Shown one piece after another: positions 2,964 to 54,085 of a stretch of 64,000 nucleotides of DNA. Origin of the DNA: Bacteroidota bacterium (GTDB lineage: Bacteria > Bacteroidota > Ignavibacteria > UBA10030). Where the stretch lies: NCBI GenBank assembly GCA_050013655.1, contig JBEKEV010000002.1, positions 13,091 to 77,090 on the forward strand, in the 5' to 3' direction. Position 1 is the stretch's first letter. The number at the start of each line of letters is the position of its first letter. Both the position numbers and the translations under genes were made by a program. The notes beneath the pieces are model-generated. The model did no database searches and had not been told where the DNA came from. It saw only the letters and a program-made list of their open reading frames with translations.

Positions 2964-2972
2964 CCTCTGAAT

Positions 2973-3022
2973 AACCTTCGCAAGGATTTCAATACTTTGT
3001 CGCGAGAACCTTGTGAAGGATT
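2973..3022. repeat. pair of 16-nt near-palindromic units (AACCTT-NNN-AAGGATT) separated by 18 nt
   Basis: aaccttcgcaaggatt (2973-2988) and aaccttgtgaaggatt (3007-3022) lie between the convergent nfu-like and ftsE genes. The same unit family and the same 18-nt spacing recur at 29543-29592. Confidence 0.6.
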
Positions 3023-3028
3023 ATCGGA

Positions 3029-3700
3029 CTATTTCCCTTTCTTCATATCTATTTCAGTCAGCTTCCCGTCTTTCAACTGAACCACTCGTGCAGGATATTT
3101 TTTTACTAAATCATAATTATGCGTTGCCATAAGTACAGCGGTACCGCGCATATTGATTTTCTTGAGAAGTTCCATAATCTCCGCGGAAGAAATTGGGTCA
3201 AGATTACCTGTCGGTTCATCTGCAAGGAGGACAACCGGTTCGTTGACCAGTGCCCGCGCTATGACGACACGCTGCTGCTCCCCGCCTGACAACTCATGCG
3301 GCATATGATTGCGCTTATGACTCAAGCCGACATCAGCGAGTACGTGCAAGACTGTTTTCTTGATTTCACTGCGTCGTGCGTTCGTGACGAAAAGTGCGAA
3401 GGCAACATTATCGTAGACATTCCGGTCTTCGAGTAATTTAAAATCTTGAAATACAATTCCCAACCGACGCCGGATGAGGGGTATTTGACGATTCGTAAGA
3501 GTCGCGGAATCATAGCTGGAAATCTTCACCCTTCCGGTGGAGGGATACAAATCAAAGTACAACAACCGCATGAGTGAACTTTTTCCGGTTCCGGTTTGTC
3601 CGACCAGATACACAAACTCACCTTGTTGTACTGAGAAATTGAGGCGGTCGAGGACTTGTTGACCATCGAACGATACCGAAACGTTCTTTAATTCAATCAT
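3029..3700 (-). CDS. ftsE: cell-division ABC ATPase FtsE
   Basis: Walker A GQTGTGKSS, signature LSGGEQQRV, Walker B VLLADEPTGNLD. Start placed at ATG 3700 (MIELKNVSV), which gives an ATGATTGA start/stop overlap with pdxA. Confidence 0.85.
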   Translation of the reverse strand: MIELKNVSVSFDGQQVLDRLNFSVQQGEFVYLVGQTGTGKSSLMRLLYFDLYPSTGRVKISSYDSATLTNRQIPLIRRRLGIVFQDFKLLEDRNVYDNVAFALFVTNARRSEIKKTVLHVLADVGLSHKRNHMPHELSGGEQQRVVIARALVNEPVVLLADEPTGNLDPISSAEIMELLKKINMRGTAVLMATHNYDLVKKYPARVVQLKDGKLTEIDMKKGK

Positions 3701-4688
3701 GATCGCGCCTATTCTGTGATATTTTGACGGCAAGCTTGATCGCTTCGATTATGCTGGACAGGTTTGCTTTGTTCTTTCCAGCAATGTCATAGGCTGTGCC
3801 GTGGTCAGGTGAAGTGCGGATGATCTTCAACCCTGCTGAAAAGTTCACACCTTTTCCGAATGAACTCATCTTGAGTGGAATTAATCCCTGGTCATGGTAC
3901 ATCGCCACGACTGCATCATACTTTTTATACGCATGTGTTCCAAAGAATGCATCGGCAGAAAAGGGACCTTCGGCAAGAATTCCTGCTGCTTTGGAATCTG
4001 CTATTGCCGGTGCGATCATTCCATCGTCTTCCGTACCGAACAATCCTTTCTCACCTGCATGTGGATTAAGTGCAAGGATGGCGAGCCGCGGTTTCTTCAA
4101 GCGAAAATCTTTTTTCATTGATGTATCGATAATGGCGATTTTTTCGATAACTTTTTCTTTGGATATGTTCGCTGCAACATCCTTGAGCGCCGTGTGGATA
4201 GTAACAAGTCCTACGCGCATTTTATCTGATACAAGCATCATCGCTACGTTCTGAGATCGACTCAGGAGTGCAATCATCTCTGTTTGTCCTGGGAAACTAT
4301 AACCGGCAAGATTCAGCGCTTCTTTGGATATTGGAGCGGTGACCATTGCCGCTGCCTTACCCTGCACGCAGAGTTCAACAGCGCGCTCGAGAGCAACACC
4401 TGCAGACCGACCAGCCGTTTTTGTGGTAGTGCCATACTGGATGTCTGCACCGATACCATCCCCAACATCTATAACCGAAAGACCGGATCGATGAAGCTGG
4501 ACTAACGTTGTTTGTGCAAGCGGTACTTTGAGTTTACAGTTTTTTGCTGTCTGTTCGAAAACACTTAATGGCCCCATAAGAATCGGTACGCAGAGTTTTT
4601 TTATAGCTGGATGGATTGCGGCTTTGAGTGCAAGTTCTGGACCGATGCCGTTAAAATCACCGATCGTTATCACAATAATGGGTTTCAA
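3693..4688 (-). CDS. pdxA: 4-hydroxythreonine-4-phosphate dehydrogenase PdxA
   Basis: ITIGDFNGIGPEL, VTIHTALKDV, LNPHAGEKG and SPDHGTAYDIAGK. Confidence 0.9.
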   Translation of the reverse strand: MKPIIVITIGDFNGIGPELALKAAIHPAIKKLCVPILMGPLSVFEQTAKNCKLKVPLAQTTLVQLHRSGLSVIDVGDGIGADIQYGTTTKTAGRSAGVALERAVELCVQGKAAAMVTAPISKEALNLAGYSFPGQTEMIALLSRSQNVAMMLVSDKMRVGLVTIHTALKDVAANISKEKVIEKIAIIDTSMKKDFRLKKPRLAILALNPHAGEKGLFGTEDDGMIAPAIADSKAAGILAEGPFSADAFFGTHAYKKYDAVVAMYHDQGLIPLKMSSFGKGVNFSAGLKIIRTSPDHGTAYDIAGKNKANLSSIIEAIKLAVKISQNRRDHD

Positions 4689-6037
4689 TAATTCTCCGTC
4701 TTCACAAGAATATAATTGCCGTTTTTCTTTGAATCCCTAAAAGTGAACCGCTTTTTAAGGCTTTCGTATGTCCAGATTTCGGTTGGCGCTGTATTGGGTT
4801 TCAGCAAACGATTTGTTATGGATGGTGCGCCGAATAAAATATAGATGCGTCCACGGTCGGTACGATACCCGTCTTTTTCATCTGTAGTAGAAAATCTCTT
4901 GATCGATTCATCTACGCGCCGGTAGTATTCAGCCATGACTGAATTATACGCACGCGTGGTGTCCGGATTGCGTTTGTGCCAGAACGCTCGAAGCGCTTTC
5001 CTCGATTTATCGGAACTGAACGCAGACATCTGGTCGATTTCTTCTTCCGTCGCGATAAGTTTCAATGCGTCAACGGTTACTTTAGGATCGGAAAGAGAAC
5101 GAGGTTTGAGCGGCCAAATAACGTTATATCTAAATTCTTTTACAGACTTCAACGCACCTTGCGTCACTGTCGCGGTGAGCAGATATGTACCCGCATCCAA
5201 TCGTTCTGTCGGAATGGGTGCAAAGACAAATCTACTGTGTGCCGACCCTTTTATTATTGTAAAAGAGACGCGCTTTGCATTTTCAATCGCGGCAAGTGTG
5301 CCGTTTCGCTGAGAACATTGTTCGCCCTGTAATTGTTGCGAAATCTCATCATCGTCTTCGTTCTTGCTTTGTATTCTCCATGCAAGATGAATGTCGGTGC
5401 TTGTATCTGGTGTAACGACCTGAAACAAACATACCCCTGATTGTCCAATGATAACATTTCCGCCATGGTTTTTCGGGAAAATGATAGTATGGTCGGATAA
5501 AGAGGAGTCGGATTGTATCGTATCGATAAACATGATTCGAGAAACATTCAAATCGGAAGCAGAAAAAGTCCGAGCATCCACTTTCGTATCGCGATTGATG
5601 AATGATTTACCTGACTCGCTGTCTTTTGCTTCAACAACAATTTTAAAAAACCCCTTTTTGAGCTTGAAAGTAAAAATTCCTTGTATCTCATCGGATGGAG
5701 GAGCGTCTTCGGCAGGTATCGAGATTCGTTCAATCCGCATCGGGCGGACCTCGCGTCCAACTGTGACATTGCTGCTATCCATAATTTCAACAATTAATTC
5801 TCCTTTTGCTTCGTAACTTTCTTCTTGTGTATTGGCTGTTTTTGCAAAAAAGAGAAACGATGGACTTACACGGTAGAGAACAACGAGCTCGATGGATGTC
5901 GTGTCGCTGCTCCAATACGGAATAGCTTCAAATATCACCGGACTCATAGTGTGCGCATCCAACCGAGTAGTCTCTTTGTCGAATTGAGCAAAGGATATCG
6001 AAGAGAAAAAAACAAAAAAGAAAGTAAGATATCTCAT
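4685..6037 (-). CDS. GWxTD domain-containing secreted protein
   Basis: C-terminal GYRTDRGRIYILFGAPS ... PTEIWTY matches the GWxTD domain. Start moved to internal ATG 6037, which gives the signal peptide MRYLTFFFVFFSSISFAQ. Confidence 0.75.
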   Translation of the reverse strand: MRYLTFFFVFFSSISFAQFDKETTRLDAHTMSPVIFEAIPYWSSDTTSIELVVLYRVSPSFLFFAKTANTQEESYEAKGELIVEIMDSSNVTVGREVRPMRIERISIPAEDAPPSDEIQGIFTFKLKKGFFKIVVEAKDSESGKSFINRDTKVDARTFSASDLNVSRIMFIDTIQSDSSLSDHTIIFPKNHGGNVIIGQSGVCLFQVVTPDTSTDIHLAWRIQSKNEDDDEISQQLQGEQCSQRNGTLAAIENAKRVSFTIIKGSAHSRFVFAPIPTERLDAGTYLLTATVTQGALKSVKEFRYNVIWPLKPRSLSDPKVTVDALKLIATEEEIDQMSAFSSDKSRKALRAFWHKRNPDTTRAYNSVMAEYYRRVDESIKRFSTTDEKDGYRTDRGRIYILFGAPSITNRLLKPNTAPTEIWTYESLKKRFTFRDSKKNGNYILVKTENY

Positions 6038-6639
6038 TATTGTTGCCTTGTAGGTTTTTGTTCGATAGGAGACCATATAATTCACGGCACTGGAAAAATA
6101 CGGAGAAAGTGAGGGAAAGGCAAACGCGTGTAGTCTTTTTTCTTTTCCTGCCTTTCTTCTGACGCTTTTTGAACTTTGCAGTAAATGAGAAATGATTGAG
6201 AAGACAAGAACAGATAAAAAGGTCGGTCGCATGAAAGAGCAAATGATTGTCCCTCGAATATTTCAATGTCCTTCAAGGCGTCATGAGGAGTCTACGACAG
6301 AAGTGGAAAAAATATCAGCATATATCTTCCATATCTAAGAGACGAATTGTTCTCTCAATCATCCAATGTACTGGTAAAAGTCTCGTATAAACTTTTCAAG
6401 ATAAAGAGGTAAAACTGTGGAAAAGCATAAGATTCTCTATTATATTAATACTGCAGTGAATGTTTTATAGTAAATAGGCAGTCACAGCTGGACTATTTGA
6501 GCGATTCGTTATTTACGATAGCAGATCAGCATGTATTCAGCGGTAACTTTTACATGAAGAATGAAAGGGAAACATCATCGGAGAACGAACGATGGTGTTC
6601 CAATGTTCTATAAGTAGATAGCAAAAAGGAAGATATTTT

Positions 6640-7911
6640 ATGTTGCTCTACAGCCGTGGCTCAGAAAGTGACGTCCTTTACGAAGAAGATCTGAAGCAAG
6701 GACTTACTGAGGCGTTTTTAAAATTAGGCGCAAAGAAAAAGGTTTTAGCAATTCCTCCGGATTTTACTCGCTTCCACTCGCATGCCGGTATTCTCACGCG
6801 CCTGACGTGGGAGTATTACAAAGAAAAGCTCACCGATATTCTTCCGGCGCTTGGCACACACACTGCCATGACCGAAAAAGATATCAAAACCATGTTCGGT
6901 ACTACACCGCTGAATCTCTTTCGTGTGCACGATTGGCGGAAAGACGTGGTCACACTGGGGGAAGTTCCATCTGATTTTATTTATCAACAATCAGAAGGAA
7001 AATTGGATTATGCATGGAAGGCGCAGGTCAACAAACTTCTTGTGGAAGGGAATTTTGATTTGATATTGTCGCTTGGCCAAGTGGTGCCGCACGAAGTTAT
7101 CGGCATGGCGAACTACAACAAAAATATTCTTGTGGGAACCGGCGGACCTGAAGGGATTAACAAAAGTCATTTTCTCGGAGCTGTGTACGGGATGGAACGC
7201 ATTATGGGACGCGCAGACAATCCGGTACGACGCGTTTATAATTATGCATCAGATCATTTTGCAAAGCATTTGCCGATCGTCTATGTTCAAACGGTTGTCT
7301 CGCGCGGCGCAGACGGACAACTGAAAGTTCGCGGTTTCTATATTGGCGATGATATGGAATGCTTTAATCTTGCAGCAGCATTATCGCTCAAAGTAAATTT
7401 TCAAATGGTTGAAGAGCCATTGAAGAAAGTTGTCGTGTATCTTGATCCATCGGAATTTAAAAGTACCTGGCTTGGCAACAAGAGTATCTATCGTACTCGC
7501 ATGGCAATTGCCGATGGAGGAGGACTGATCGTTCTGGCTCCGGCTCTCAAAGAATTTGGCGAGGACAAGCAAATAGATGCGCTGATTCGTAAATATGGTT
7601 ATGTCGGTACGCCAAAAGTATTGGAACTTGTGAAAGCCGAAGACGACCTGAAAATAAATTTAGGTGCAGCTGCACATTTGATTCATGGTTCGTCGGAAGG
7701 ACGCTTCTCGATTACGTATTGCCCCGGGTATCTTACGAAACAGGAAATCGAAAGTGTCAACTTCAACTATGCAGAGTTGAACAAGATGACGAGGAAGTAC
7801 GACCCCGAAAAACTCAAAGATGGTTTTAACATCATGCCCGATGGAGAAAAGATATTCTATATTTCAAATCCAGCATTGGGTTTATGGGCTTATCAAGATC
7901 GTTTCAAATAG
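6640..7911 (+). CDS. LarA-like / DUF2088-family protein (function unknown)
   Basis: 423-aa ORF. The overall pattern ([38 protein letters not shown]) recalls lactate-racemase-N-terminal-like proteins. Assignment is from memory only. Confidence 0.5.
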
Positions 7912-7969
7912 CTTAAAAAATCATTATCGTGTTGTACACATCAACTACTCACTTATAGGAAGAACAAAT

Positions 7970-9427
7970 ATGGAACAAAAAGCTGATTTTGGGTTAGTCG
8001 GATTAGCGGTCATGGGCGAGAATCTTGTACTGAATATCGAGAGCCGCGGATTCACCGTCGCCGTATTTAACCGAACGACGGAAAAGGTAGATAAATTTTT
8101 ACAGAGCCGAGGCGCAGGAAAGAAATTTATCGGTACGCATACGATTCAAGAACTCGTTGCTGCTTTGAAACGCCCGCGCAAAGTGATGCTCATGGTCAAA
8201 GCAGGGAAGGCAGTGGATGAATTCATCGAGAAGCTGATTCCTTTCCTCGAACCGGGCGATATTATTATCGATGGTGGTAATTCACATTTTCCTGATTCCA
8301 TCCGAAGAACAAAGTATTTGGAGAGTAAAGGTTTATTGTTTATCGGCACAGGTGTTTCCGGCGGCGAAGAAGGCGCATTGAAAGGACCATCCATTATGCC
8401 CGGCGGTTCAGCAGCGGCATGGCCGGCTGTGAAACCGATCTTTCAGGCAATTGCGGCAAAAGTAGAAGATGGTACACCCTGCTGCGATTGGGTCGGCGAT
8501 AACGGCGCGGGTCACTTCGTAAAGATGGTGCACAATGGCATCGAGTACGGTGATATGCAGCTCATCTGCGAATGTTATCAGATGATGAAAGAAGGTCTGG
8601 GCATGAGCAATAAAGAGATGTATGAAGTCTTCAATCAGTGGAACGAAGGCGAATTGAATTCCTATCTTATCGAAATCACTCGAGATATTCTCAATTATAA
8701 AGATGAAAAGAAAAAGTATGTTGTCGATTCTATTCTCGATACAGCCGGACAAAAAGGAACCGGAAAATGGACAAGTGTTGCCGCGCTCGATCTTGGTATT
8801 CCCATGACGATGGTTTCAGAAGCTGTCTTTGCGCGCTGTCTCTCGGCGATTAAAGATGAACGTGTTATTGCTTCGAAGATTTTGAAAGGGCCCTCAAAGA
8901 AAAAAATCAGCGGCAATAAAAAAAACTTTGTGGAAGATATCCGCAAGGCAATGTATGCTTCTAAGCTGACATCGTATGCACAAGGATATATGTTGATGAA
9001 GGAGGCTGCAAAGGAATATACATGGAATCTTAATTATGGCGGCATCGCACTTCTGTGGCGCGGCGGATGTATTATTCGCAGCACCTTCCTTGGAAAAATC
9101 AAAGTTGCATATGATAAAAATCCAAAACTCACAAATCTTCTTCTCGACCCATACTTCAAGAAGATCATGACGAACTGCCAGGAATCATGGCGGAAGGTTG
9201 TCGCAACGGCAGCACAGGTTGGAATTCCGATGCCATCAATGAGTTCTTCTTTAGCATTCTACGATGGTTATCGCCACAAGAGACTGCCGGCAAATCTCTT
9301 GCAAGCACAGCGTGATTATTTTGGCGCGCACACCTATGAACGCGTCGATAAACGGCGCGGCGAGTTCTTCCATACGAATTGGACAGGTCGCGGCGGCGAC
9401 ACAGCTTCCTCGACGTACATCGCATAA
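7970..9427 (+). CDS. gnd: 6-phosphogluconate dehydrogenase (decarboxylating)
   Basis: Start at ATG 7970 ([19 protein letters not shown], Rossmann motif). [21 protein letters not shown] signature and C-terminal [13 protein letters not shown]. Confidence 0.95.
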
Positions 9428-9456
9428 AATCTTTATCGATGTTGCTGCTTCACTTC

Positions 9457-9496
9457 AAAGCCCCGATGTTTTATATTCGTTGGGGTTTTATTTTTT
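9457..9496 (+). terminator. rho-independent terminator after gnd
   Basis: Stem aaagccccgatg / cgttggggtttt with a GC core, followed by tttta-tttttt. Confidence 0.6.
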
Positions 9497-9531
9497 ATGT
9501 ATCAATTATTGGAACACAATAGGAAATAAAT

Positions 9532-10239
9532 ATGAAAAAGAATGCCTGTATTCTCATAAGAATAATTTTCTGGATATTGTTTGTAGGCTTATCTTTTTGC
9601 TTGGCGACAAGTCCTTTGCAAAGAGACAGTTGTGCTCAATCCGATACTACTAAAATTACAGAATGGGAATTATCGTCGATATTGGAATCTTCTCCCCAAG
9701 GGATAACGGTTGTTGGAAAGCCGGAAATAGTGTATTGTCCCTATGGCAAAGCAGTTCAGTTTGATGGGCAAGATGATGCAATGATACTCGATACCAATTT
9801 GTTGGTGAACATGCATCAATTTACTATTGAAGTCATTATGCACCCGGATACAAACGGACAACGTGAACAACGGTTCCTTCATTTCGGAGAGGTGCAAGGG
9901 GAACGTGTGATGATCGAAACGAGATTAAAAAAGAATGATCAATGGTACCTCGACACGTACATGAAATCCGGACAAACAGCGCAAAGGCTTGCGGATTCCA
10001 CGAAACTTCATCCGCTCAATCAATGGTATCATGTCGCCTTTGTTGCGAATGATGGAAAGATGGAAACGTATGTCAATGGCAGGAAAGAGCTTGAAGGACA
10101 AATTCCTTTTTCACCGTTTACCATAGGTCAAACTTCTATCGGTGTAAGGCTCAATCGTGTAAATTGGTACAAAGGAGTGATTTATAAAATCAAAATTACA
10201 CCAATGAAACTGGGACCGGCACTCTTTATGAAACAATAA
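9532..10239 (+). CDS. secreted LamG/concanavalin-like domain protein
   Basis: Signal or anchor peptide (ILIRIIFWILFVGLSFCLA). FTIEVIMHPD ... WYHVAFVANDGKMETYVNG ... IGVRLN pattern is typical of the LamG jelly-roll. Confidence 0.5.
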   Translation: MKKNACILIRIIFWILFVGLSFCLATSPLQRDSCAQSDTTKITEWELSSILESSPQGITVVGKPEIVYCPYGKAVQFDGQDDAMILDTNLLVNMHQFTIEVIMHPDTNGQREQRFLHFGEVQGERVMIETRLKKNDQWYLDTYMKSGQTAQRLADSTKLHPLNQWYHVAFVANDGKMETYVNGRKELEGQIPFSPFTIGQTSIGVRLNRVNWYKGVIYKIKITPMKLGPALFMKQ

Positions 10240-12154: not shown

Positions 12155-12982
12155 TCAACAATAGTCAATCAGTTGGAAATTATTTGAATAAATAAGATCT
12201 GATACAGATGGAGGACATGAATTTTTAAAAAGCCCATAATTCCTTTTTAGGAATATTTTGATAACGTCCCTCCATGCAAAACGTATCTTCTTACTAAGAA
12301 AATTAATTTCGATATATAAAGCCATAGAAACCTTTTGTTCTTCAGTGAGTCCACCCTTATATCTGTAAAGTGCAATGTCCATGGATGGATCGAAACATTC
12401 GGCAAGATTGTTGCGATTGTATCCAGAAACTGTCATTCCAACAACCTCCTTATTCAAATGAATCGTATCAGTATGAGACCATGGACTATTGTCGATACGC
12501 CGAATAAGCTTTGAAATTCTACTTCGACGATCGTAAGAAAATAACGAGTCCCCAACTTCTGCGTGAGCCAATAGACGGTCACAAGCTTCTTTGTACCATG
12601 GTAGAGGCTTTCTATAAAATAAAGGAGGAAACTTGGTTAAATCAGAAGCTGCATTAAATGATACACTTCGGTGTGTCATATTCATGACGAACTGAATGGC
12701 ATAAGGATTATCTTCGTTTTCATGGAAATAATGGTCCATATACTCTTTATCGAAACCATTCTTGTATGAATATAAATAAAGAGGGTTAATATGATTAAAA
12801 TTACCCTCTTTAAAGCGGAATGACGAGTAATGAGTAATGTCAAGCAAAAGGAAATCTCTACCAAGATGAAAACCCATAACATTATTCTTCGGAGATGAGA
12901 CGATATGTACGTTTTCAAGGTCGGGATACTTGAGATTATATGTACTATCAACTGGGTCTAATATTTTTAAAATCGATTGCAT
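12155..12982 (-). CDS. hypothetical protein, possible permuted papain-like (YiiX/DUF830-type) hydrolase
   Basis: Start moved to ATG 12982 to avoid overlap with the upstream ORF. GDSLFSYDRRSRISKLIRRIDNSPWSHTDTI followed near the C-terminus by NSCPPSVSDLIYS resembles the His-then-Cys order of permuted NlpC/P60 enzymes. Very A+T-rich. Confidence 0.4.
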   Translation of the reverse strand: MQSILKILDPVDSTYNLKYPDLENVHIVSSPKNNVMGFHLGRDFLLLDITHYSSFRFKEGNFNHINPLYLYSYKNGFDKEYMDHYFHENEDNPYAIQFVMNMTHRSVSFNAASDLTKFPPLFYRKPLPWYKEACDRLLAHAEVGDSLFSYDRRSRISKLIRRIDNSPWSHTDTIHLNKEVVGMTVSGYNRNNLAECFDPSMDIALYRYKGGLTEEQKVSMALYIEINFLSKKIRFAWRDVIKIFLKRNYGLFKNSCPPSVSDLIYSNNFQLIDYC

Positions 12983-13011
12983 GGAGTAGTAATGTTGAAT
13001 TTTTTTAGATT

Positions 13012-13404
13012 CTATTTCATATTCTGTGCAGTAAATATAGTCAGAGAAACTAATCCAAGGATAAAAGTCAGATATTGCATAACACCGAATATGATTGCTG
13101 GTTTGTAATAAAAACGAACGTTTTCCCAAATACTATAAAATCTTAGCATACTGAAAAGAAATACGGTTCCTAATAATATTGAGGATATTTCTAATGCCCA
13201 TCCTGATATCAGAAAGCATTTATTTACCAAGATTTCTTGTAAAATATCCTTTTGCAAAGAGATCGAGATGATGACGATTCCTGTGCTTAATGAGATGAGC
13301 AATTTTCCAATATCATATGCTGTCTCATTGAATTTTTTTGTAACATTATTGATTTCATCGACCTGCTTGTTATCTTTCATTTTTTCTCCATCATTTCTGA
13401 TCAT
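13012..13404 (-). CDS. small hypothetical membrane protein (about 3 TM segments)
   Basis: 130-aa ORF with hydrophobic stretches LLISLSTGIVIISISL, FLISGWALEISSILLGTVFLF and IIFGVMQYLTFILGLVSLTIF. It is co-directional with and 30 nt upstream of the 12982 gene. Confidence 0.45.
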   Translation of the reverse strand: MIRNDGEKMKDNKQVDEINNVTKKFNETAYDIGKLLISLSTGIVIISISLQKDILQEILVNKCFLISGWALEISSILLGTVFLFSMLRFYSIWENVRFYYKPAIIFGVMQYLTFILGLVSLTIFTAQNMK

Positions 13405-21538: not shown

Positions 21539-22234
21539 TTAAGTAAAGGTAGAAACAGATTGGCTTCCGATTACTTTTTTCTTAACCTGCCACAAAATAA
21601 GATAACCTATCATGAGACTAATTGCTGACATATATGGGAATAATCCCAATAATCCTAAAAAGATATATTTCTTTTTGAGAGTTATTGCGTATCCAAAATA
21701 ACTTAATGTTACTATGGTACCAACTTTCGCAAACATTTGTAATGTACTGATAAGTACAATATACTGCGGCAAAGGCAGAATGATTTGGAGATAAACAACA
21801 AATAACATTATGAAGAAAATAAAAAAAAACAAATTAAATTTTTTCCATAAAGTATTTACCTTATGAGCTGATACCGTAACACCAATTTCATTTTCTGGAT
21901 TTTTGTTTTTAGCTGGATTATCAAAAAGCCTACCAATAAAATACAATATGATTGCATTAACTAAAGCGGCTGAGAGAAGTGGTAATAATGCAAGAAGCCC
22001 ATAAACGAGTGGATTTCCGGCAAAGTGGTTATACCAACTCATATAACCAAGCGAATCCAACATAGGCGTCACAATGATGCTCCACGGAAGCGTTATAAGA
22101 ATTGAGAATAGACCGGAAAATTCTGAATTCGCTGTGTGAAAAATAAGTAGATACAACATATAAATTCCGGAAAGTAAAAATATTCCGAGGTAGGAGAGAC
22201 TTAAAATCAAACCTGGTTGTGAATCCAATTTCAT
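21539..22234 (-). CDS. hypothetical polytopic membrane protein
   Basis: Start moved to ATG 22234 because the longer ORF runs through the tRNA gene. About 6 hydrophobic segments and extremely A+T-rich. Confidence 0.5.
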   Translation of the reverse strand: MKLDSQPGLILSLSYLGIFLLSGIYMLYLLIFHTANSEFSGLFSILITLPWSIIVTPMLDSLGYMSWYNHFAGNPLVYGLLALLPLLSAALVNAIILYFIGRLFDNPAKNKNPENEIGVTVSAHKVNTLWKKFNLFFFIFFIMLFVVYLQIILPLPQYIVLISTLQMFAKVGTIVTLSYFGYAITLKKKYIFLGLLGLFPYMSAISLMIGYLILWQVKKKVIGSQSVSTFT

Positions 22235-22351
22235 ATGATTAAAAAGATTCTTTCCCCCCAACGAAACCGCAAACTCGTTTTTGCCTCCAAAACTGAATAT
22301 AAATGAGTCGCCGAGCGAGGCGAGAATCAGTACCGCTTGCAATTTCCTACG

Positions 22352-22428
22352 TGGTGCACCCGGAGGGAGTCGAACCCCCAACCTACAGCTCCGTAGGCTG
22401 CCGCTCTATCCAATTGAGCTACGGGTGC
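22352..22428 (-). tRNA. tRNA-Arg (anticodon ACG), CCA encoded
   Basis: The reverse complement reads GCACCCGTAGCTCAATTGGATAGAGCGGCAGCCTACGGAGCTGTAGGTTGGGGGTTCGACTCCCTCCGGGTGCACCA, with anticodon loop CTACGGA. Confidence 0.9.
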
Positions 22429-45245: not shown

Positions 45246-45449
45246 ATGGGATCCATAGGTGGTCAAGAACTATTTCTTATTCTCCTTCTCGTTCTCGTTT
45301 TCTTCGGCGCAAAAAAATTGCCTGAATTAGCGCGAGGACTAGGACAGGGAATTCGTGAATTCCGCAAAGCAGCAAAAGATGTACAGGATGAAGTCGAGAA
45401 GGAAACAAAAAAACTCGACGAGAAGAACGATACAAAGCCGCAAGGCTGA
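45246..45449 (+). CDS. tatA: twin-arginine translocase TatA/E
   Basis: 67 aa. ELFLILLLVLVFFGAKKLPELARGLGQGIREFRKA. Confidence 0.9.
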   Translation: MGSIGGQELFLILLLVLVFFGAKKLPELARGLGQGIREFRKAAKDVQDEVEKETKKLDEKNDTKPQG

Positions 45450-45500
45450 TTGCTGAATCCTGAAATCCACATCTCCACAGCTATACATTCAGCGAGTTCC

Positions 45501-46958
45501 ATGAAATCATTTGACGTACTGCGAGCGGAGCTTACAGCGGGAACAACGACCTGTGAGCGCATTACTTTGGGATATCTCCGTACGATTGAAGAAAAAAAGC
45601 ATCTGAACGCACTCCTTTCAGTATTTCCGGAAAAAGCGCTTGAGCAGGGGAGGATTGTTGATAAGAAACTGCAGAATGGAACAGCCGGTCCGCTCGCAGG
45701 AATGGTGATGGCTATAAAAGATGTCATTTGCATGAAAGACGAGCGAGTGACATGCGGATCAAAAATATTAGAAAATTTCGTCTCTCTCTATGATGCAACC
45801 GTCATTCAGCGTTTGCGCGGCGCTGATGCTGTTATCATCGGCAAAGCTAATATGGACGAATTCGCAATGGGTTCATCCACAGAGAACTCAGCATATGGAC
45901 GAGTAAAGCTTCCGCAGGATGAGACACGCATTCCCGGAGGATCAAGCGGCGGTTCCGCGGTTGCTGTGCGGGCAGGAATGTCCACGACTTCCTTAGGATC
46001 GGATACAGGCGGTTCCATTCGCCAGCCGGCGGCATTTTGCGGAGTGACAGGATTAAAGCCAACCTATGGGCGAGTTTCCCGTTACGGGCTTGTTGCCTAC
46101 GCATCATCGTTTGATTCCATTGGTCCTTTCGCATTGACGACAAAAGATACGGCGAGTGTTTTTCAGGTTATAGCAGGATATGATCCCAACGATTCAACAT
46201 CAGCAGAAGTACCGGTACCAGATTATCTTTCGCAATTAACCAAAGATGTGAAAGGTTTGCGTGTTGGAATTCCAAAGGAGTATTTTGGCGAAGCTCTCGA
46301 TTCCGAAATTCGTCAATCGATAGAGAAGAAAATTGATATTTTGCGAAGCAATGGAGCGACTATCGTGGAAGTGAACCTTCCCCATACAGAATATACGATC
46401 GCCGCATATTATATTCTTGCTACTGCGGAGGCATCATCGAATCTTGCACGATATGATGGAGCGCGGTACGGCTACAGGAAGGAAGATGTACATGATCTTT
46501 CCGAAATGTATATTAAATCGCGGAGTGAGGGATTTGGCACAGAGGTCAAGCGGCGTATTATGCTGGGCACGTATGTCCTTTCCGCTGGCTACTACGATGC
46601 ATATTATCGGAAAGGTCAAAAAGTCCGGCGATTGATTCAGGAAGATTTTACAAAAGCGTTCGAGAAAGTTGACTGCCTCATCACACCGACATCGCCAAGC
46701 ACTGCGTTCAAGGCAGGCGAAAAGATGAATGACCCTCTGCAAATGTATCTTTCGGATATTTATACGACGTCGGCGAATCTTGCAGGCATTCCCGGTATCA
46801 GCATACCATGCGGAGAGGATCATCAAGGATTACCGATCGGTTTACAGATTCTTGGACCGCATTTTGGTGAATCGACATTATTGCGCGTAGCCGATTTTTT
46901 GGAAATAGTGAATCAAAAGTATTTATCCTTTAGTTTGGAGGGACCAAGGAATGAATAA
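45501..46958 (+). CDS. gatA: Glu-tRNA(Gln)/Asp-tRNA(Asn) amidotransferase subunit A
   Basis: Start at ATG 45501. Amidase signature GGSSGGSAVAV...GSDTGGSIRQPA. Confidence 0.95.
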   Translation: MKSFDVLRAELTAGTTTCERITLGYLRTIEEKKHLNALLSVFPEKALEQGRIVDKKLQNGTAGPLAGMVMAIKDVICMKDERVTCGSKILENFVSLYDATVIQRLRGADAVIIGKANMDEFAMGSSTENSAYGRVKLPQDETRIPGGSSGGSAVAVRAGMSTTSLGSDTGGSIRQPAAFCGVTGLKPTYGRVSRYGLVAYASSFDSIGPFALTTKDTASVFQVIAGYDPNDSTSAEVPVPDYLSQLTKDVKGLRVGIPKEYFGEALDSEIRQSIEKKIDILRSNGATIVEVNLPHTEYTIAAYYILATAEASSNLARYDGARYGYRKEDVHDLSEMYIKSRSEGFGTEVKRRIMLGTYVLSAGYYDAYYRKGQKVRRLIQEDFTKAFEKVDCLITPTSPSTAFKAGEKMNDPLQMYLSDIYTTSANLAGIPGISIPCGEDHQGLPIGLQILGPHFGESTLLRVADFLEIVNQKYLSFSLEGPRNE

Positions 46959-48903
46959 TCAACAGAAATATAAAATATTACGTGATATCACGGAAGAAAG
47001 AAAATTTCATGAATTGCTGAGAGATCTCTTTGTTAATATGGGATACAAAGGGGTCATTATTAGCCATGGAGCTGATGAAGATGGTAAAGATCTAGTAATG
47101 TATGAGATCTCAAAAATTAAGGAGAAAGAATTCAAAGCCATTGTTGCAAAGATTGGTGATATATCAGGAGCGTCAACAGTAAAAGATTCTGCTTCACTTG
47201 CAAATATTGAACAACAGATTAGACTTTGTTTTACTATTCCGTTTTATGATACAGAAACGAAGCAAAAAGAGAATATTCGATCTGTGTTTGTAGCGACAAA
47301 CGGAAATATTTCTAACAATGCTAGAAGGAAAATAGTTAGTACTTTTGGTGAGAAGGCTGTAGGTGATCGAGCAAATGTTGATTTCATTACTTCTCATAAA
47401 CTTAAAGATCTAATAGATGAACACTATCCTGATTACTTCCTTTATGGTGATTCCTTTATTTCGTGTTACTTTTCCAAATTGAGAATGCGGCTAGATCGGC
47501 TTACCGATATGCAGATCTTTGAATACAAAGGAGAAACCAAAAAAATAAATGATATCTATATCGAGCCGCAGCTTCGTGTTTCAAAAGATCCTGGTAGCCG
47601 ACTTTCACCAAAACAAGTAATCAGTCCTGGTTTTAATGTGCTTATAGTAGGACAAATGGGGGCTGGTAAAAGCACATTAATGAAGAATCTTGTTCTTGAA
47701 GCTATCGAAAGATGTACTCTTTCAATGGGTAAAAAACATGGTCAGATACCTCTCGAAAATATCAAAATACCTATTTTTACTAAATTTAAGGATTTAGATT
47801 CCGATAGAACATTCATTGAGATTTTAGAACAAGAACTTGAAATCGGAGATTTAGAGGGTCACAAATTTGATGTTAAAGATCATCTAAGGAATGGTCTTTT
47901 TGTTTTTTTTCTAGATGGTTTGGATGAAGTAACAGATCAGTCTGAAAAAGATAAAATAATAGAAAAAATATATTCGTTTTCCTCGGAATATCCTAAAGTA
48001 CAAATAATTATTGCCTCAAGGGAGATTGAATATTTAGAATTAAATCAAAACTTGGGAGTATTTAAACGTTACGAGATTCTTCCTCTTGATGCTTCACAAA
48101 TAGATGCATTTATTCGGAGATGGTTCAAAGCTAAACGTCTTGATATGCAACGGATGTTAAAAGCGTTACAAGACACCTTGATGTTACATAAACTACCTAA
48201 AACTCCGATGGTTATGACTCTATTGTCAATAATCATGGAACAAGGGAATAGAAAAGAACTTCCTTCTACAATGACGGAATTGTATTCATTGGCAACTGAA
48301 GTATTTCTCCGTCGATGGGATGTAGAAAAAAATATAACTGCTTTGTACGAATATCCCATCAAAGAAAACTTCTTAATGGAACTTGCATTTATGCTTCATA
48401 TGAGCAAGCGAGAAGAAATACCAATTGCCGAGATGGTAGAGTTTACAGAAAAATTTATTAAAGAATTAAATATAAGCAGGAGTAAAGAAGAATTCTTAAA
48501 TGAAGTAGTCGAAAGAAGTCAGCTTGTATGGCGGAATGAAAATGGTGCATTTCAATTTAAGCATGTTTCATTTCAAGATTATTTTGCAGCTAAAGCAATT
48601 AAAGAACTCTACCCAAATAAAATTGATATTGAAAAAGGTTTCTCTGATCTTCTTTGGGAGGGGATTTTATTCTTCTATTGCGGGTTAAAGAAAAAATGTC
48701 CAGATGAAGTGACTCAAATAATCAGTACCTGGCGTGATTCTGGTAAGCTAGAAGAAATCCGAAAGTTTATTCTATTTGGACATATACTTCAAGCATCATT
48801 CTTAAATCCTTTTATGACGAAAAGAAAGGCTTTAGAATTTGCTCTAGATAAGTGGGCCAGTCTTTCAGTTGAGTTAAGAAAGAATCCTCCAAAAGAACTA
48901 TAA
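46951..48903 (+). CDS. STAND NTPase with N-terminal Mrr-like PD-(D/E)xK nuclease domain and central NACHT module
   Basis: N-terminal FHELLRDLFVNMGYKGVIISHGADEDGKDLVMYE...AIVAKIGD. Walker A GQMGAGKST and Walker B FVFFLDGLDEV. NACHT-like IIIASREIEY, ILPLDASQIDAFIRRWF and PKTPMVMTLLSII. A+T-rich. The start overlaps the gatA stop (ATGAATAA). Confidence 0.8.
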   Translation: MNNQQKYKILRDITEERKFHELLRDLFVNMGYKGVIISHGADEDGKDLVMYEISKIKEKEFKAIVAKIGDISGASTVKDSASLANIEQQIRLCFTIPFYDTETKQKENIRSVFVATNGNISNNARRKIVSTFGEKAVGDRANVDFITSHKLKDLIDEHYPDYFLYGDSFISCYFSKLRMRLDRLTDMQIFEYKGETKKINDIYIEPQLRVSKDPGSRLSPKQVISPGFNVLIVGQMGAGKSTLMKNLVLEAIERCTLSMGKKHGQIPLENIKIPIFTKFKDLDSDRTFIEILEQELEIGDLEGHKFDVKDHLRNGLFVFFLDGLDEVTDQSEKDKIIEKIYSFSSEYPKVQIIIASREIEYLELNQNLGVFKRYEILPLDASQIDAFIRRWFKAKRLDMQRMLKALQDTLMLHKLPKTPMVMTLLSIIMEQGNRKELPSTMTELYSLATEVFLRRWDVEKNITALYEYPIKENFLMELAFMLHMSKREEIPIAEMVEFTEKFIKELNISRSKEEFLNEVVERSQLVWRNENGAFQFKHVSFQDYFAAKAIKELYPNKIDIEKGFSDLLWEGILFFYCGLKKKCPDEVTQIISTWRDSGKLEEIRKFILFGHILQASFLNPFMTKRKALEFALDKWASLSVELRKNPPKEL

Positions 48904-48918
48904 ATAAGTATAAAGAGA

Positions 48919-49341
48919 ATGACTGAAGAAAATTGGATTCTTTCATTTAAAAATATGTTTTCGATGTACTATGGTTCTGTTGTTCTTTCTGACGCTTTGA
49001 TAGAAATATATGATTCCCTAAAAATAAATTCAGGATCCGTTGATGAAAAGGATCTTGAAGAATTTCATTTAATTGGGTTAAAAAAATATTTTATTGCATC
49101 TACACTTGCTGAATTAAATGAACCAGAATATTTACTAAAATTCCTAGAAGAAGGTCCCCGAGGCAATATAAATCTCTTCAACTTAATTAAGAACGATATG
49201 GGTCGATTAGTTCAACAAGGATCATTTATTCAAGTTGATAAAGAGTTAAAAGGTAAAATAAAGAAGATTATTCATAAAAGACTTGCCAGAATAAATAGTG
49301 GTAAAAAGAAAAACTGGGATAATTCTCGAAAAAATAATTGA
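48919..49341 (+). CDS. hypothetical 140-aa protein, in the same frame as the upstream NACHT ORF
   Basis: The ORF starts 15 nt after the single TAA of the NACHT ORF, in the same reading frame. Predicted helical with a Lys-rich tail. It may be a separate partner or the severed C-terminus. Confidence 0.4.
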   Translation: MTEENWILSFKNMFSMYYGSVVLSDALIEIYDSLKINSGSVDEKDLEEFHLIGLKKYFIASTLAELNEPEYLLKFLEEGPRGNINLFNLIKNDMGRLVQQGSFIQVDKELKGKIKKIIHKRLARINSGKKKNWDNSRKNN

Positions 49342-49361
49342 TTTAGAAAAGAGGAATAGCC

Positions 49362-50378
49362 ATGAGCATCCTCGTTGATAAAAATACACGTCTCATTGTG
49401 CAGGGAATTACAGGCAGCGAAGGAACCTTCCATACGAAGCAAATGATGGAGTACGGAACCAAAGTGGTTGCCGGTGTTACGCCGGGAAAAGGCGGCACAC
49501 TCTATCAAGGCAACGAGAAGGATCAGCTGCCGCGTCCAGTTCGGGTGTTCAATACTGTAAAAGAAGCGGTGGAGAGTGAGCGGGCAAACGCTTCTATCAT
49601 TTTCGTTCCTGCTGCTTTTGCTGCCGATGCAATTATGGAATCTGCAGATGCCGGAGTCAAACTCATCGTGGCGATTACCGAGGGGATTCCGACAAGTGAT
49701 ATGGTGAAGGTGCACGAATATGTATCAAGAAAAGGGGTTCGGCTTGTCGGACCAAATTGTCCGGGTGTGATTACTCCGGGCGAAGCGAAGATCGGCATTA
49801 TGCCCGGCTTCATTCATAAGCCGGGGCGAATTGGAGTAGTATCGCGAAGCGGAACTTTGACCTATGAAGCAGTCTCACAGCTTACAGAGCGAAGTATCGG
49901 ACAATCTACTTGTGTCGGCATTGGAGGCGATCCGATCATTGGAACACAGTTCATCGATGTGATAAAACTTTTTCATGCAGACAAGAAAACAGATGCCATC
50001 GTTATGATTGGTGAGATTGGTGGAACGGCAGAAGAGGAAGCAGCAGAGTACATCAAAAAGTATGTTAAGAAGCCGGTTGTCGGGTTTATCGCTGGACGCA
50101 CTGCACCTCCGGGACGCCGGATGGGACATGCAGGTGCTATTATCTCCGGTGGAAAAGGAACAGCGGACGAAAAGATGAAAGCAATGCGTAATGCCGGAAT
50201 CACCGTCGTCGATAGTCCGGCGCTCATCGGTGAGACGATGGAAAAATCACTCAAAAGATTTGATAAGGGAGATGTTAGAAGGAAGGCGGCAGATGTGAAA
50301 AAAGTATCTCACAAAAAACACCGAATGTTGAGCAGCGCGAAAGGAAAAAGTATAAAGCATAAAAGGAAGAAAAAATAA
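49362..50378 (+). CDS. sucD: succinate--CoA ligase subunit alpha, with a basic C-terminal extension
   Basis: [25 protein letters not shown] and the phosphohistidine loop [11 protein letters not shown]. About 42 extra Lys/Arg-rich residues at the C-terminus. Confidence 0.95.
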
Positions 50379-51514: not shown

Positions 51515-52078
51515 ATGAATACCGGACAGATGATGCTTACAATAGGAGCTTTGATTCTACTTGGAACAACTGTGTTTACAGTAAACAGTAATAGTCTCAA
51601 CCAGGGCACTATTTTGCGGCAAACCGAAATAGGTATTTATGCTGTTTCCTTAGCGACTTCTTATATTCAAAAGGCAATGAGTTTGGCATTTGACGAGAAA
51701 ACAAATACCAGGCCGACCTTACCTGTGAATGCAGTACCATCGGCATACTTGACAGCACCCCCTCTGGGAATCGATGCAGCTTATGGTGAAATTGCCAACC
51801 GAGATTCAACGTTTGACGATTTTGATGATTATAATAATTATAGCAAAGATACTTTAATTACAAATGTCGATGATTTTAAAGTCGGTGCAATTGTGTATTA
51901 TATTCAGAATATTGGTGATGCTCAACCGTATGCTCAAACTAACACACCGACTTGGCTTAAACGGATGGATGTTTGTGTGTGGTCCTCAATAAGTCGCAAA
52001 GTCTTTGAAGATCCAAATGCAGCCATTGACAAGGGCACAGATACAATTAAAATCTCGTACATTAAAAGTTATTATTAA
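51515..52078 (+). CDS. hypothetical N-terminally anchored protein, minor-pilin (PilV/FimT)-like
   Basis: Short polar N-terminus followed by a hydrophobic helix (MNTGQMMLTIGALILLGTTVFTV). First of three co-directional, tightly spaced genes. Confidence 0.4.
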   Translation: MNTGQMMLTIGALILLGTTVFTVNSNSLNQGTILRQTEIGIYAVSLATSYIQKAMSLAFDEKTNTRPTLPVNAVPSAYLTAPPLGIDAAYGEIANRDSTFDDFDDYNNYSKDTLITNVDDFKVGAIVYYIQNIGDAQPYAQTNTPTWLKRMDVCVWSSISRKVFEDPNAAIDKGTDTIKISYIKSYY

Positions 52079-52089
52079 GAAGAAATATT

Positions 52090-52704
52090 ATGGGAACTTC
52101 AACACTTCTTGATATCCTGGGTTCGTTAACGACTTTTGGATTTCTTTTACTTATAGCTCTTGGGTTAAATGCAAACGCAAGCGAAAAGAATACTGAATAT
52201 TTTGCAAGTTATTTGCTTCAATCTAATATGATTACGCTCACTGTGATGCTCGAAGACGATCTTAAACACATTGGACAAAACTATACTCCGACAGTGGCTA
52301 ACCCGACTGCTATAATGACAGCTGATTCACTCGAATTTAGTTTTTATAGAAATGGAGATTTAATTGATTATGTAGTTGGAGCTCCTTTAGGGATAGGCCA
52401 GTATCCCAATTCTCGCTATGTATACAGAAATGTCAACGGTACACAAAATCTTATGAATCTCGGGGTGATTCATATGACATTCACCTATTGGGATATTGCG
52501 GATCCTACTATTAAACGGTACCCTCCTGTCCCTCAAGCAAATTTTGGAAATATTGGACCGATAGACATCTCGATTCAGATGGAGAGTCCTTATAAAAGGA
52601 AACCAGATTATTCGAATGCGGCAGACACTTCAGAATACGAAATGTATTGGCGTCAAATACGTTCTATAGCTAGGACAACACTCGTTCAGATTCCAGGTCC
52701 ATAA
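52090..52704 (+). CDS. hypothetical N-terminally anchored protein, PilW-like
   Basis: MGTSTLLDILGSLTTFGFLLLIALGL, then ...LTVMLEDDLKHIGQ, which resembles the PilW N-terminal pattern (L..DIR.AG). Confidence 0.4.
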   Translation: MGTSTLLDILGSLTTFGFLLLIALGLNANASEKNTEYFASYLLQSNMITLTVMLEDDLKHIGQNYTPTVANPTAIMTADSLEFSFYRNGDLIDYVVGAPLGIGQYPNSRYVYRNVNGTQNLMNLGVIHMTFTYWDIADPTIKRYPPVPQANFGNIGPIDISIQMESPYKRKPDYSNAADTSEYEMYWRQIRSIARTTLVQIPGP

Positions 52705-52723
52705 TATAATAAGGAGAAAAATT

Positions 52724-54085
52724 ATGGGACGCACTTCAATAATGATGGTCATAGGGTTTAATTTAATTTTTATGATGCTTGGTTACAGAATGTCAACAGT
52801 TACATCATCGGCATATAATAAATATATTAGATATAATTGCCTTGAACAAACGGGTCTTGCTGCGGAAAGTGGAGCTAATATAGCTATTTCGAATGCATTT
52901 TTTTCGAAGGCGACTCCTATTCCAGCTGCCTCATTTTCGTCCGGGACTGGTGTAGCTGGGACAATCCAGATTACAAAAACATCATTCCCAACAAATGTAG
53001 GAGGAACTGATACTGCTGGATTTATTTTAACTGTAATCGCGGCAGATGTCGACGATTCGGTAATAACCACGGTAAAAGTTCAAGGTACTAGTTTTTCTAC
53101 ATTTGTTATGTTTACTACAAATGAAGGGGGAATCCTATGGCAAACGGGAGATATATGCTATGGTAATTATCACACGCAGGATTGGATAAATGTTACAGGA
53201 AACCCGGACTTTAAAGGCTTGACGACTACATTCCTAGGCCTTAAAAAGCAGCATAGCAGTGATGATCCAGATTTTGAGGGAGGTTACACTGCGGGTGTCA
53301 ATCTACCATTGTCAGGAGATTTTAATAATTTAAAGGCCCTTGGGGCTATAGGTGGAGCATCTGCATCTTATACTAATTTAGATACGTATGTTGAATTCCG
53401 AAGTAATGGACAAGTAGTTGTACGAGCTGAGCCTGTGGGTACAACAGGTTCATCAACTTGTTGGAATGAATCAAGAACTACAAACATACCAAGCACAACG
53501 ACACCATATTGTATGGTATATAATACCATTTCTGATTTGACTTCAAGCGGCGTTCTTCTTTTGAATGGTAGTAGTCCTACTAGTAATGGTGATCTTCATG
53601 TAAAGGGAGTATTAGATGGACAAATCACTCTAGGTAATATTGGTAAAGGAGACGTATATATTGATTCATCGCTTACTTATCACACTCCTGCACCTACTGC
53701 GCTAAACCCTACGCTTGTAACACCACAAGATCTGTTAGGCATTGTTGCGAACAATAATATTTGGATTACGGACAATGCCAATAATAACAATGCATCGAAT
53801 GGTGTGGAAGTTGATGCCTCTATGTATTGCCTGAATGGAGGATTTGGTGCACAAAATTATAACGGCCGAGGATATGATGGAGTGCTTAAAGTTGTTGGTG
53901 GAATTCAAGAAAAAGCACGAAACGCAGTTGGTCAACCGGGTCCCCCTATTTTAGGATTTTTGAAGGATTATGAATACAATTTAAATCTGCAATATGTAAC
54001 ACCAAAAGGTTACCCCACAACAAACTTTGCAATAAAAAATTGGGTTGATAGTACACTAATTTCAAATTCCTTTTGGCAGCAGTAA
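52724..54085 (+). CDS. hypothetical N-terminally anchored protein, PilX-N-terminal-like with a beta-helix-like body
   Basis: MGRTSIMMVIGFNLIFMMLG, then LEQTGLAAESGANIAISN (PilX-like AEAG motif). Repetitive Gly/Asn/Thr-rich body (ANNNIWITDNANNNNASNGVEVDAS). Confidence 0.4.
   Translation: MGRTSIMMVIGFNLIFMMLGYRMSTVTSSAYNKYIRYNCLEQTGLAAESGANIAISNAFFSKATPIPAASFSSGTGVAGTIQITKTSFPTNVGGTDTAGFILTVIAADVDDSVITTVKVQGTSFSTFVMFTTNEGGILWQTGDICYGNYHTQDWINVTGNPDFKGLTTTFLGLKKQHSSDDPDFEGGYTAGVNLPLSGDFNNLKALGAIGGASASYTNLDTYVEFRSNGQVVVRAEPVGTTGSSTCWNESRTTNIPSTTTPYCMVYNTISDLTSSGVLLLNGSSPTSNGDLHVKGVLDGQITLGNIGKGDVYIDSSLTYHTPAPTALNPTLVTPQDLLGIVANNNIWITDNANNNNASNGVEVDASMYCLNGGFGAQNYNGRGYDGVLKVVGGIQEKARNAVGQPGPPILGFLKDYEYNLNLQYVTPKGYPTTNFAIKNWVDSTLISNSFWQQ

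Follow-up and report, generated by a model that had tools for sequence, protein, structure and literature searches.

The 64,000-nucleotide stretch of contig JBEKEV010000002.1 analysed here (the window in the following) carries a 2.4-kb block of low GC (guanine plus cytosine) content between the genes gatA and sucD. We consider it likely that this block is one gene encoding a single-chain antiphage protein which is a relative of nucleotide-binding leucine-rich repeat receptors (NLRs) and has the architecture of bNACHT25 and bNACHT32, that it forms an accessory cassette, and that the copy in the window has most likely been inactivated only recently. The two Escherichia coli proteins, which belong to clade 6 of the bNACHT proteins, consist of an N-terminal PD-(D/E)xK DNase, a NACHT module and an NCH1 domain (PMC12169576).

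A preliminary description of this DNA had proposed a nuclease-NACHT antiphage system, possibly of a new subtype or in a two-component variant. Its proposed kinship with antiphage proteins was borne out, since the experimentally validated bNACHT25 aligned end to end with P0001, the closest homolog of the window protein (BLASTP with full-length bNACHT25, E = 1e-49, 25% identity, one segment, residues 19-731 versus 19-792). The new subtype did not hold, as the three-domain architecture read from the sequence is that already published for bNACHT clade 6. The candidate new NLR subtype thus resolves to a distant, probably inactivated relative of the characterised bNACHT25/32 family, and the window gene is probably a new member of a known clade 6-like system.

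A single reading frame interrupted by one stop codon

Two open reading frames (ORFs) of 650 aa (46951-48903) and 140 aa (48919-49341), both on the plus strand like all features described below unless stated otherwise, are located between gatA (45450-46958) and sucD (49362-50378). These coordinates confirm the 2.4-kb block as first outlined: its ATG overlaps the stop codon of gatA within ATGAATAA, and the spacer between the last stop of the cassette and the ATG of sucD comprises 20 nt. Both ORFs share the same frame, and the gap between them consists of a TAA (48901-48903) and five sense codons followed by an ATG. Translation of 46951-49341 therefore yields a continuous frame of 796 codons (650+1+5+140 = 796) and a terminal TGA, broken internally only by the TAA at codon 651. 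This triplet serves as a normal stop codon in the genome and also terminates gatA and sucD.

The closest homolog P0001, encoded at positions 2558-4948 of the metagenome contig L001, is 94% identical to the window protein and a single protein of 796 aa. At the corresponding site P0001 has ...KNPPKELELSIKRM... and the window has ...KNPPKEL*ISIKRM..., and the two cassettes are of equal length without any indels (92.8% nucleotide identity), codon 651 being GAA (Glu) in L001 and TAA in the window. All full-length homologs recovered were single chains of 751-825 aa, and no other split homolog was found among the recovered homologs. The protein P0006 (540 aa), the one further short homolog encoded on a long contig, was considered as a second split gene and rejected because it runs off the end of its contig. 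The block is one gene, not two, and the "140-aa ORF" represents the C-terminal two-thirds of NCH1 rather than a separate gene.

The premature stop is located in NCH1, in a loop following the helix formed by residues 621-644, and according to the model of the intact ortholog it removes seven of the approximately nine NCH1 helices. One G-to-T change (GAA to TAA) would thus be sufficient to remove most of the domain. The literature consulted on bNACHT25 is silent on the effect of NCH1 removal; the intact allele in L001 and the NCH1-truncated allele in the window form a natural pair that could be used to probe the function of this domain.

The cassette is under purifying selection, the ratio of non-synonymous to synonymous divergence (dN/dS) between the window and L001 being 0.097 overall and 0.08 in the segment behind the stop. 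Polarising the changes behind the stop with P0002-P0005 as outgroups assigned two derived changes to the window lineage and five to the L001 lineage. Neither a frameshift nor a further stop codon occurs in the window copy, and all its catalytic and nucleotide-binding residues are intact. Due to the low dN/dS behind the stop, the few changes in the window lineage and the lack of any other lesion, the nonsense change must have arisen very recently or else reflect an erroneous base call.

Most likely the window copy is an allele that lost its function only lately, provided that the base in question was assembled correctly. The alternative, namely a gene that is intact and works in the organism, with the TAA at 48901 stemming from a wrong base call, from the assembly or from a minority variant and the rest of our explanation unchanged, appears unlikely but has to be taken seriously. 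It agrees with the presence of exactly one disabling change, with the selection maintained behind the stop, with the smaller number of post-stop changes in the window lineage than in that of L001, and with the integrity of the catalytic and nucleotide-binding residues. Substitution errors are uncommon in consensus assemblies, however, and a very recent real mutation would yield the identical pattern.

Genomic context and probable recent exchange of the cassette

With a GC content of 32.3% the block differs from gatA (46.5%), sucD (48.0%) and the whole window (42.9%). Among all 2,391-nt stretches of the 64 kb it has the lowest GC content, the minimum falling precisely on position 46951 (z = -3.7), and its GC content at third codon positions is 0.24 compared to 0.42-0.45 in the neighbouring genes. 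The dip had initially been noticed from three 60-nt lines; their values (0.30 in the block, 0.583 and 0.55 in the flanks) were reproduced, but the two flank lines are local peaks and not typical of gatA and sucD. The cassette is oriented in the same direction as its neighbours in the otherwise conserved gene string purQ-tatA-gatA-sucD. A simple consensus scan for a promoter or terminator belonging to the cassette yielded nothing convincing, the block is not flanked by meaningful direct or inverted repeats, and the ORF list of the window contains no integrase or transposase adjoining it. An Rfam scan of the window revealed three tRNAs only, all of them far from the block.

The homologs of the flanking genes in L001 match the Pfam families Amidase (gatA) and CoA_binding and Ligase_CoA (sucD, also in L002). 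The gene encoding P0001 is located at the same gatA-sucD junction, as is that of P0002, which is 57% identical to the window protein and encoded in an Ignavibacteriae metagenome-assembled genome (L002), so that a NACHT gene occupies the junction in three genomes. A survey of 80 gatA loci in reference genomes revealed four relatives that keep the order purQ-tatA-gatA-sucD without the NACHT gene; three of these (L003, L006 and L010) are labelled as Ignavibacteriales, Ignavibacteria or Ignavibacteriaceae and one (L005) as Ignavibacterium. The three occupied junctions, the four relatives lacking the NACHT gene and the low GC content support an accessory insertion with presence/absence polymorphism, as had been expected. 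According to sucD the relative L003 with an empty junction (75.5% identity to the window) is closer to the window than the occupied L002 (72.5%). When the empty junctions of L003, L005 and L010 were compared with the occupied flanks, the intergenic DNA was too diverged to define the insertion point at base level.

In L006 the slot between gatA and sucD contains a gene for a GNAT acetyltransferase (9376-9885, 169 aa, Acetyltransf_1, 63 bits), and in L002 an ORF of 352 aa (2958-4016) with weak cytochrome-c-like matches is located beside the NACHT gene. The latter was ruled out as a partner of the NACHT protein in view of these weak matches and because neither the window nor L001 contains it. Altogether the gatA-sucD junction looks like a general variable slot. 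Distant members of the subfamily use other sites, namely beside genes for AbiGi and Lon_C, a type I restriction HSDR_N_2 protein, or a tyrosine integrase. A scan of metagenomes with the subfamily alignment retrieved 15 loci, none with more than 34% identity and none at the gatA-sucD junction, and provided nothing further on codon 651. Upstream of gatA, L001 carries two tandem tatA-like genes (584-790 and 853-1056, TatA_B_E) while the window carries one (45246-45449).

The comparison of the window with L001 revealed a pronounced difference between the cassette and its surroundings. The NACHT cassette shares 92.8% of its nucleotides with that of L001 and shows a synonymous divergence (dS) of 0.29, whereas gatA and sucD are each approximately 74% identical with a dS of 1.8, and tatA has a dS of 1.1. 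In a sliding window of 90 nt the identity steps to at least 0.90 at about position 46944, just before the ATG, and is back at approximately 0.74 by about position 49460. Together with the boundary alignments this profile delimits a tract of high identity (46944-49460, neither strand assigned; 0.85-0.98 compared to 0.62-0.80 in the backbone), which we regard as a recently exchanged segment. Given the dS of 0.29 in the cassette versus 1.8 in the flanks and the sharp identity step at 46944, the simplest reading of these alignments is that the cassette allele moved between the two lineages, or into both of them from a common pool, long after their divergence and into the same slot. The transfer would most likely have occurred by homologous replacement of a slot that was already occupied.

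Within the cassette dS relative to L001 is uneven, rising from 0.17 in codons 1-200 through about 0.28 in codons 201-650 to 0.52 in codons 652-796, which may reflect more than one recombination tract or chance. When positions 46900-46958 were compared with L001 2480-2557, the gatA gene of the window was found to extend about 14 codons beyond the end of its L001 counterpart, reading …FLEIVNQKYLSFSLEGPRNE* versus …FLEHVN*, and to stop only inside the start-codon region of the cassette. Divergence within the flank is highest over the 90 nt that precede the cassette (0.62 identity). The cassette junction appears to have reshaped the C-terminus of gatA.

A competing explanation assumes a single ancient insertion followed by vertical inheritance, the low divergence between window and L001 having a cause other than recent transfer, for instance chimeric metagenome assembly or an unusual synonymous constraint. 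The 57%-identical homolog in the slot of L002 would fit a cassette that has resided there for a long time, the order of similarity is the same for sucD as for the NACHT gene (the window nearest to L001 and more distant from L002), L001 is a MEGAHIT contig of only 6.2 kb, and neither mobility genes nor repeats were found. We nevertheless consider this scenario rather improbable. The six-fold contrast in dS arises within 6 kb and with a sharp step at the edge of the cassette, and the synonymous sites of the NACHT gene can saturate, their proportion of differences (pS) reaching 0.75 relative to L002. Furthermore, L003 is nearer to the window than L002 by sucD and yet empty, so that a loss would be required in addition, and a chimera would require two independent assemblies to have been joined at identical gene boundaries.

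If the cassette was exchanged recently, it would illustrate clearly how a defence gene can pass from species to species and enter one and the same housekeeping slot although no mobility machinery can be recognised, and this exchange without mobility genes would be the only mildly unusual feature of the locus. We tentatively extend this to a possible scenario in which the gatA-sucD junction is a defence slot without a mobility gene, where a promoterless antiphage ORF in a string of essential genes, its start overlapping the gatA stop, is swapped between species by recombination, and in which the strongly diverged NCH1 perhaps senses a trigger other than the DnaJ-linked signal of bNACHT25. This would explain a dS of 0.29 within a backbone of 1.8, the other cargo (the acetyltransferase gene in L006 and the cytochrome-c-like ORF in L002) and the occurrence of nonsense-silenced alleles.

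Nuclease and NACHT domains

The N-terminal domain (residues 1-165, 46951-47445) is predicted to be a Mrr-like nuclease effector domain of the PD-(D/E)xK type. An AlphaFold model computed for residues 1-170 of the window protein itself (predicted local distance difference test, pLDDT, 87) has an alpha-beta-beta-beta-alpha-beta core, and a Foldseek search with the domain listed the endonuclease MspJI first, followed mostly by other PD-(D/E)xK nucleases including EndoMS, Mus81, EcoO109I, MunI, Cap4, the SPARDA nuclease, SwaI and Can2, with all of these structural matches weaker than E = 1e-3. The Pfam family Mrr_cat (PF04471, cutoff 21) scores 16.6 bits in the window copy, 18.4 in P0001, 19.9 in P0002 and 17.0 in bNACHT25, and only P0004 passes with 26.3 bits. 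The domain is best regarded as a distant Mrr relative of the PD-(D/E)xK type and not as a member of the Pfam family. The nuclease originally suggested is supported by the topology of the model, the fold matches, the Mrr_cat match of P0004 and the alignment with bNACHT25; the two Pfam matches envisaged for the protein were obtained for NACHT (38.2 bits, cutoff 26.7) but not for Mrr_cat.

In an alignment of 35 homologs the residues E16, G40, E43, G45, D47, K67 and Q89 of this domain are invariant. D47 (GAT, 47089-47091), at the start of beta-2 in the model, is the predicted catalytic Asp and corresponds to D48 of bNACHT25. K67 (AAG, 47149-47151), located at the end of beta-3 (strand 59-67) and invariant in the alignments A5 and A6, is the putative catalytic Lys of the (D/E)xK motif, whose canonical acidic residue is replaced by Val65, so that the active-site geometry is a predicted one.

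The NACHT nucleotide-binding domain (residues 230-394, 47638-48132) matches the Pfam family PF05729 above its cutoff, and the homologs P0001, P0002 and P0004 reach 35-41 bits. It contains the Walker A motif GQMGAGKST (residues 234-242, 47650-47676; K240 at 47668-47670) and the Walker B motif FVFFLDGLDEV (residues 317-327, 47899-47931) with the NACHT-type D-G-L-D-E signature. These motifs, as well as GADEDGKDLVMYE (residues 40-52) and AIVAKIGD (63-70) in the nuclease domain, were found at the places where they had been reported. The helical and winged-helix part of the module (residues 395-598, 48133-48744) includes LPKTP (415-419) and the sequence FKHVSFQDYF with H538 (48562-48564). Invariant residues of the module in the 35-sequence alignment are G237, G239, K240, D322, D325, E326, R357, P419 and H538. 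Judging from this invariance, R357 and H538 are candidates for the sensor-1 Arg and the winged-helix His that contact the nucleotide, and H538 is presumably equivalent to H443 of NLRC4.

The AlphaFold model of the intact ortholog (pLDDT 84.5, predicted template modelling score 0.77) retrieved NOD2, NLRC4, NLRP and NAIP proteins exclusively among its top 50 Foldseek matches, with E values down to 1e-11. A search of P0001 as a single sequence against the PDB gave no match, and the family profile was needed, which matched NLRC4 and NLRP3 at about 1e-9 versus Avs2 at about 1e-3. The Pfam match above the cutoff and the fold matches to NOD2, NLRC4 and NLRP3 thus corroborate the assignment to the NACHT-type STAND (signal transduction ATPases with numerous domains) NTPases. 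Partial matches to the NCBIfam models DS8_antiphage (58 bits, cutoff 790) and EruA (27.5 bits, cutoff 1000) reflect the shared NACHT core and were rejected as evidence of membership.

The protein shares with the animal NLRs NOD2, NLRC4 and NLRP3 the NACHT module's fold and the logic of effector, switch and sensor, at a sequence identity of 12-17%. Its sensor is compact and helical while theirs consists of LRR repeats, and its effector is a nuclease in place of their CARD or PYD adaptor. The Avs/AVAST proteins with a Mrr or Cap4-type nuclease are likewise single-gene antiphage sensors combining a STAND NTPase with an N-terminal nuclease of the PD-(D/E)xK type, but the NTPase of the window protein belongs to the NACHT clade and not to the Avs clades, and a TPR-like sensor is lacking. 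An assignment to Avs is thus not supported, given the lack of any TPR, WD40 or LRR match in Pfam, the compact C-terminus of nine helices and the lack of an Avs match in PADLOC. Avs proteins bind phage proteins directly, while sensing by bNACHT25 is indirect and proceeds via DnaJ (PMC12169576; PMC13581612).

The C-terminal NCH1 domain

The C-terminal region (48745-49338) was identified as a diverged NCH1 domain by comparison with the NCH1 region of the bNACHT25 clade. Using hhalign, the C-terminal domains alone matched NCH1 of this clade with a probability of 96.8% (E = 2.5e-10, 132 columns), and the 145 residues behind the stop alone with a probability of 83% (E = 8.9e-6). In the model the domain consists of nine helices (residues 599-795) and contains no repeats, and neither ORF has a Pfam match to a repeat family (TPR, WD40, LRR), in agreement with the lack of such periodicity noted before in the C-terminus and the 140-aa ORF. 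The supposedly unknown type of the ligand-sensing region was not substantiated: by profile comparison the "unknown sensor" is a diverged form of NCH1, a domain already named and present in bNACHT25/32 (PMC12169576). The Pfam NCH1 model gives 132-135 bits in bNACHT25 and P0007. Since divergence is greatest in NCH1, the trigger may differ from that of bNACHT25.

A two-component system or new NLR subtype, consisting of a truncated nuclease-NACHT protein and a separate 140-aa partner with an unknown sensor, is very unlikely in view of these results. Two ORFs can be called, with an ATG 15 nt behind the stop, the Pfam NCH1 model finds no match, and the segment behind the stop is conserved. However, the shared frame is split by a single TAA where the single-chain homolog with 94% identity has GAA, all full-length homologs are single chains, the split lies inside a compact helical domain and not between domains, this domain is NCH1 by profile-profile comparison, and the only other candidate for a split gene (P0006) is cut by its contig end. 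Recurrent, independently split homologs with conserved start signals of the small ORF were not found. The 140-aa ORF is thus the tail of the same gene behind one nonsense codon, as P0001 is encoded by one ORF.

Relation to bNACHT25 and proposed mode of action

The proteins bNACHT25 and bNACHT32 (WP_057688292) protect against DNA and RNA phages, and infection triggers DNA degradation (Conte et al. 2025, PMC12169576). The exchange D48A in bNACHT25 abolishes both defence and DNA degradation, and the MS2 coat protein activates the bNACHT25 system indirectly, which requires the host protein DnaJ (PMC12169576). The Mrr-like effector was also noted by Kibby et al. (bioRxiv 10.1101/2022.07.19.500537). 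The bNACHT25 sequence was recovered from 399 nt of DNA given in the supplement of the paper, which led to WP_001702659.1 (positions 6114-8372 of the locus L085, i.e. E. coli NZ_CP091756.1, 2678638-2691036). The gene is located there in a Rac-like prophage region with racC, kilR, sieB and ydaT, directly after a truncated DUF977 gene and about 1 kb upstream of an IS3 transposase gene. The first 399 nt of the bNACHT25 insert match only 17 of 5,426 complete E. coli genomes.

Residues 1-399 of bNACHT25 matched the 650-aa window protein with E = 4e-25, SEKGADFV being aligned with DEDGKDLV and thus D48 with D47, while its first 95 residues used alone gave no significant BLASTP match, in contrast to the longer queries (399 aa and full length). 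The profile of the window subfamily matched that of the bNACHT25 clade with a probability of 100% over 726 columns. Both proteins contain the same domains in the same order, are of similar length (752 versus 796 aa) and colinear from end to end, share the catalytic Asp, the Walker A and B motifs and the putative winged-helix His, and are encoded by single accessory genes. In contrast, the window subfamily is only about 25% identical to bNACHT25, and its NCH1, the part expected to set the trigger specificity, is too diverged for the Pfam model. They also differ in their hosts and sites, an enterobacterium with a Rac-like prophage for bNACHT25 and a relative of the Ignavibacteriales with the gatA-sucD slot for the window, and the window copy lacks an uninterrupted frame due to its premature stop.

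The nearest relatives outside the window subfamily are NACHT-NCH1 proteins of Pseudomonas and other bacteria (P0007-P0036). The approximately 30 matches ranking next after P0001-P0006 have 750-790 aa and share about 25-29% identity with the query across 90-100% of its length; the majority carry PF22728 (NCH1). This group possesses the canonical Pfam NCH1 (135 bits in P0007), and the N-terminus of P0007 is 56% identical to that of bNACHT25, while P0001-P0006 form a separate, small and more AT-rich subfamily together with the window protein. The nuclease-NACHT-NCH1 architecture is thereby extended to a lineage related to the Ignavibacteriales. The NCH1 of this subfamily is so diverged that both the Pfam model and PADLOC-DB v2.0.0 miss it, and adding its sequences would improve the models.

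By analogy with bNACHT25 the intact protein would be an autoinhibited monomer until infection perturbs something monitored by NCH1. The infection signal would be read through this domain, possibly via a host chaperone such as DnaJ in bNACHT25, whereupon the NACHT module might oligomerise in a nucleotide-dependent manner and switch on the PD-(D/E)xK DNase. The nuclease would then presumably degrade cellular as well as phage DNA and thereby abort the infection.

Several points weigh against this interpretation. Antiphage activity requiring the nuclease and DnaJ was shown for bNACHT25/32 only, to which the window subfamily is related at about 25% identity (to bNACHT25), and the dependence on DnaJ may fail to transfer across 75% sequence divergence. 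The Pfam NCH1 model (PF22728) does not directly detect the window ORFs (E <= 1) or P0001-P0005 (E <= 0.1 for P0001, P0002 and P0004), and a scan of both ORFs with PADLOC-DB v2.0.0 gave matches at the level of the P-loop only (mad8 with 18.6 bits, HerA, PtuA) without any system being called. In the nuclease domain the window copy remains below the Mrr_cat cutoff, the structural matches are weak, and Val65 replaces the acidic residue of the canonical triad. As to the history of the locus, the TAA at 48901 rests on the assembly consensus and can be checked only from the reads, and the dS contrast derives from one pairwise comparison with a short metagenome contig.

A STAND NTPase with a role outside defence, for instance a regulatory or housekeeping protein transcribed together with gatA and sucD, would fit the orientation of the gene within the housekeeping string, the stop/start overlap and the lack of a convincing promoter or terminator of its own in the consensus scan, but it is scarcely credible given the four relatives without the NACHT gene, the atypically low GC content, the nuclease effector with its conserved Asp that bNACHT25 needs for defence, the location of other members beside AbiGi, restriction or integrase genes or in a prophage, and the nonsense mutation that is tolerated here.

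Other low-GC regions of the window

Besides the NACHT block the window contains one other clear low-GC island, an ORF of 324 aa on the minus strand (12155-13129, 34.4% GC) without a Pfam hit. Another low-GC ORF on the minus strand (21539-22381, 35.5%, 280 aa) matches DUF7942 with 34.5 bits. Its 5' end as called overlaps a tRNA-Arg(ACG) gene (22352-22428, minus strand) by about 30 nt, and it may represent another accessory insertion beside a tRNA gene or have a mis-called start. Three consecutive ORFs of 187, 204 and 453 aa (51515-54085, GC content 38-39%) are likewise without a Pfam hit. The first of them has a hydrophobic N-terminus resembling that of prepilins (MNTGQMMLTIGALILLGTTVF), and the three ORFs could form a pilus or pseudopilin-like cluster.

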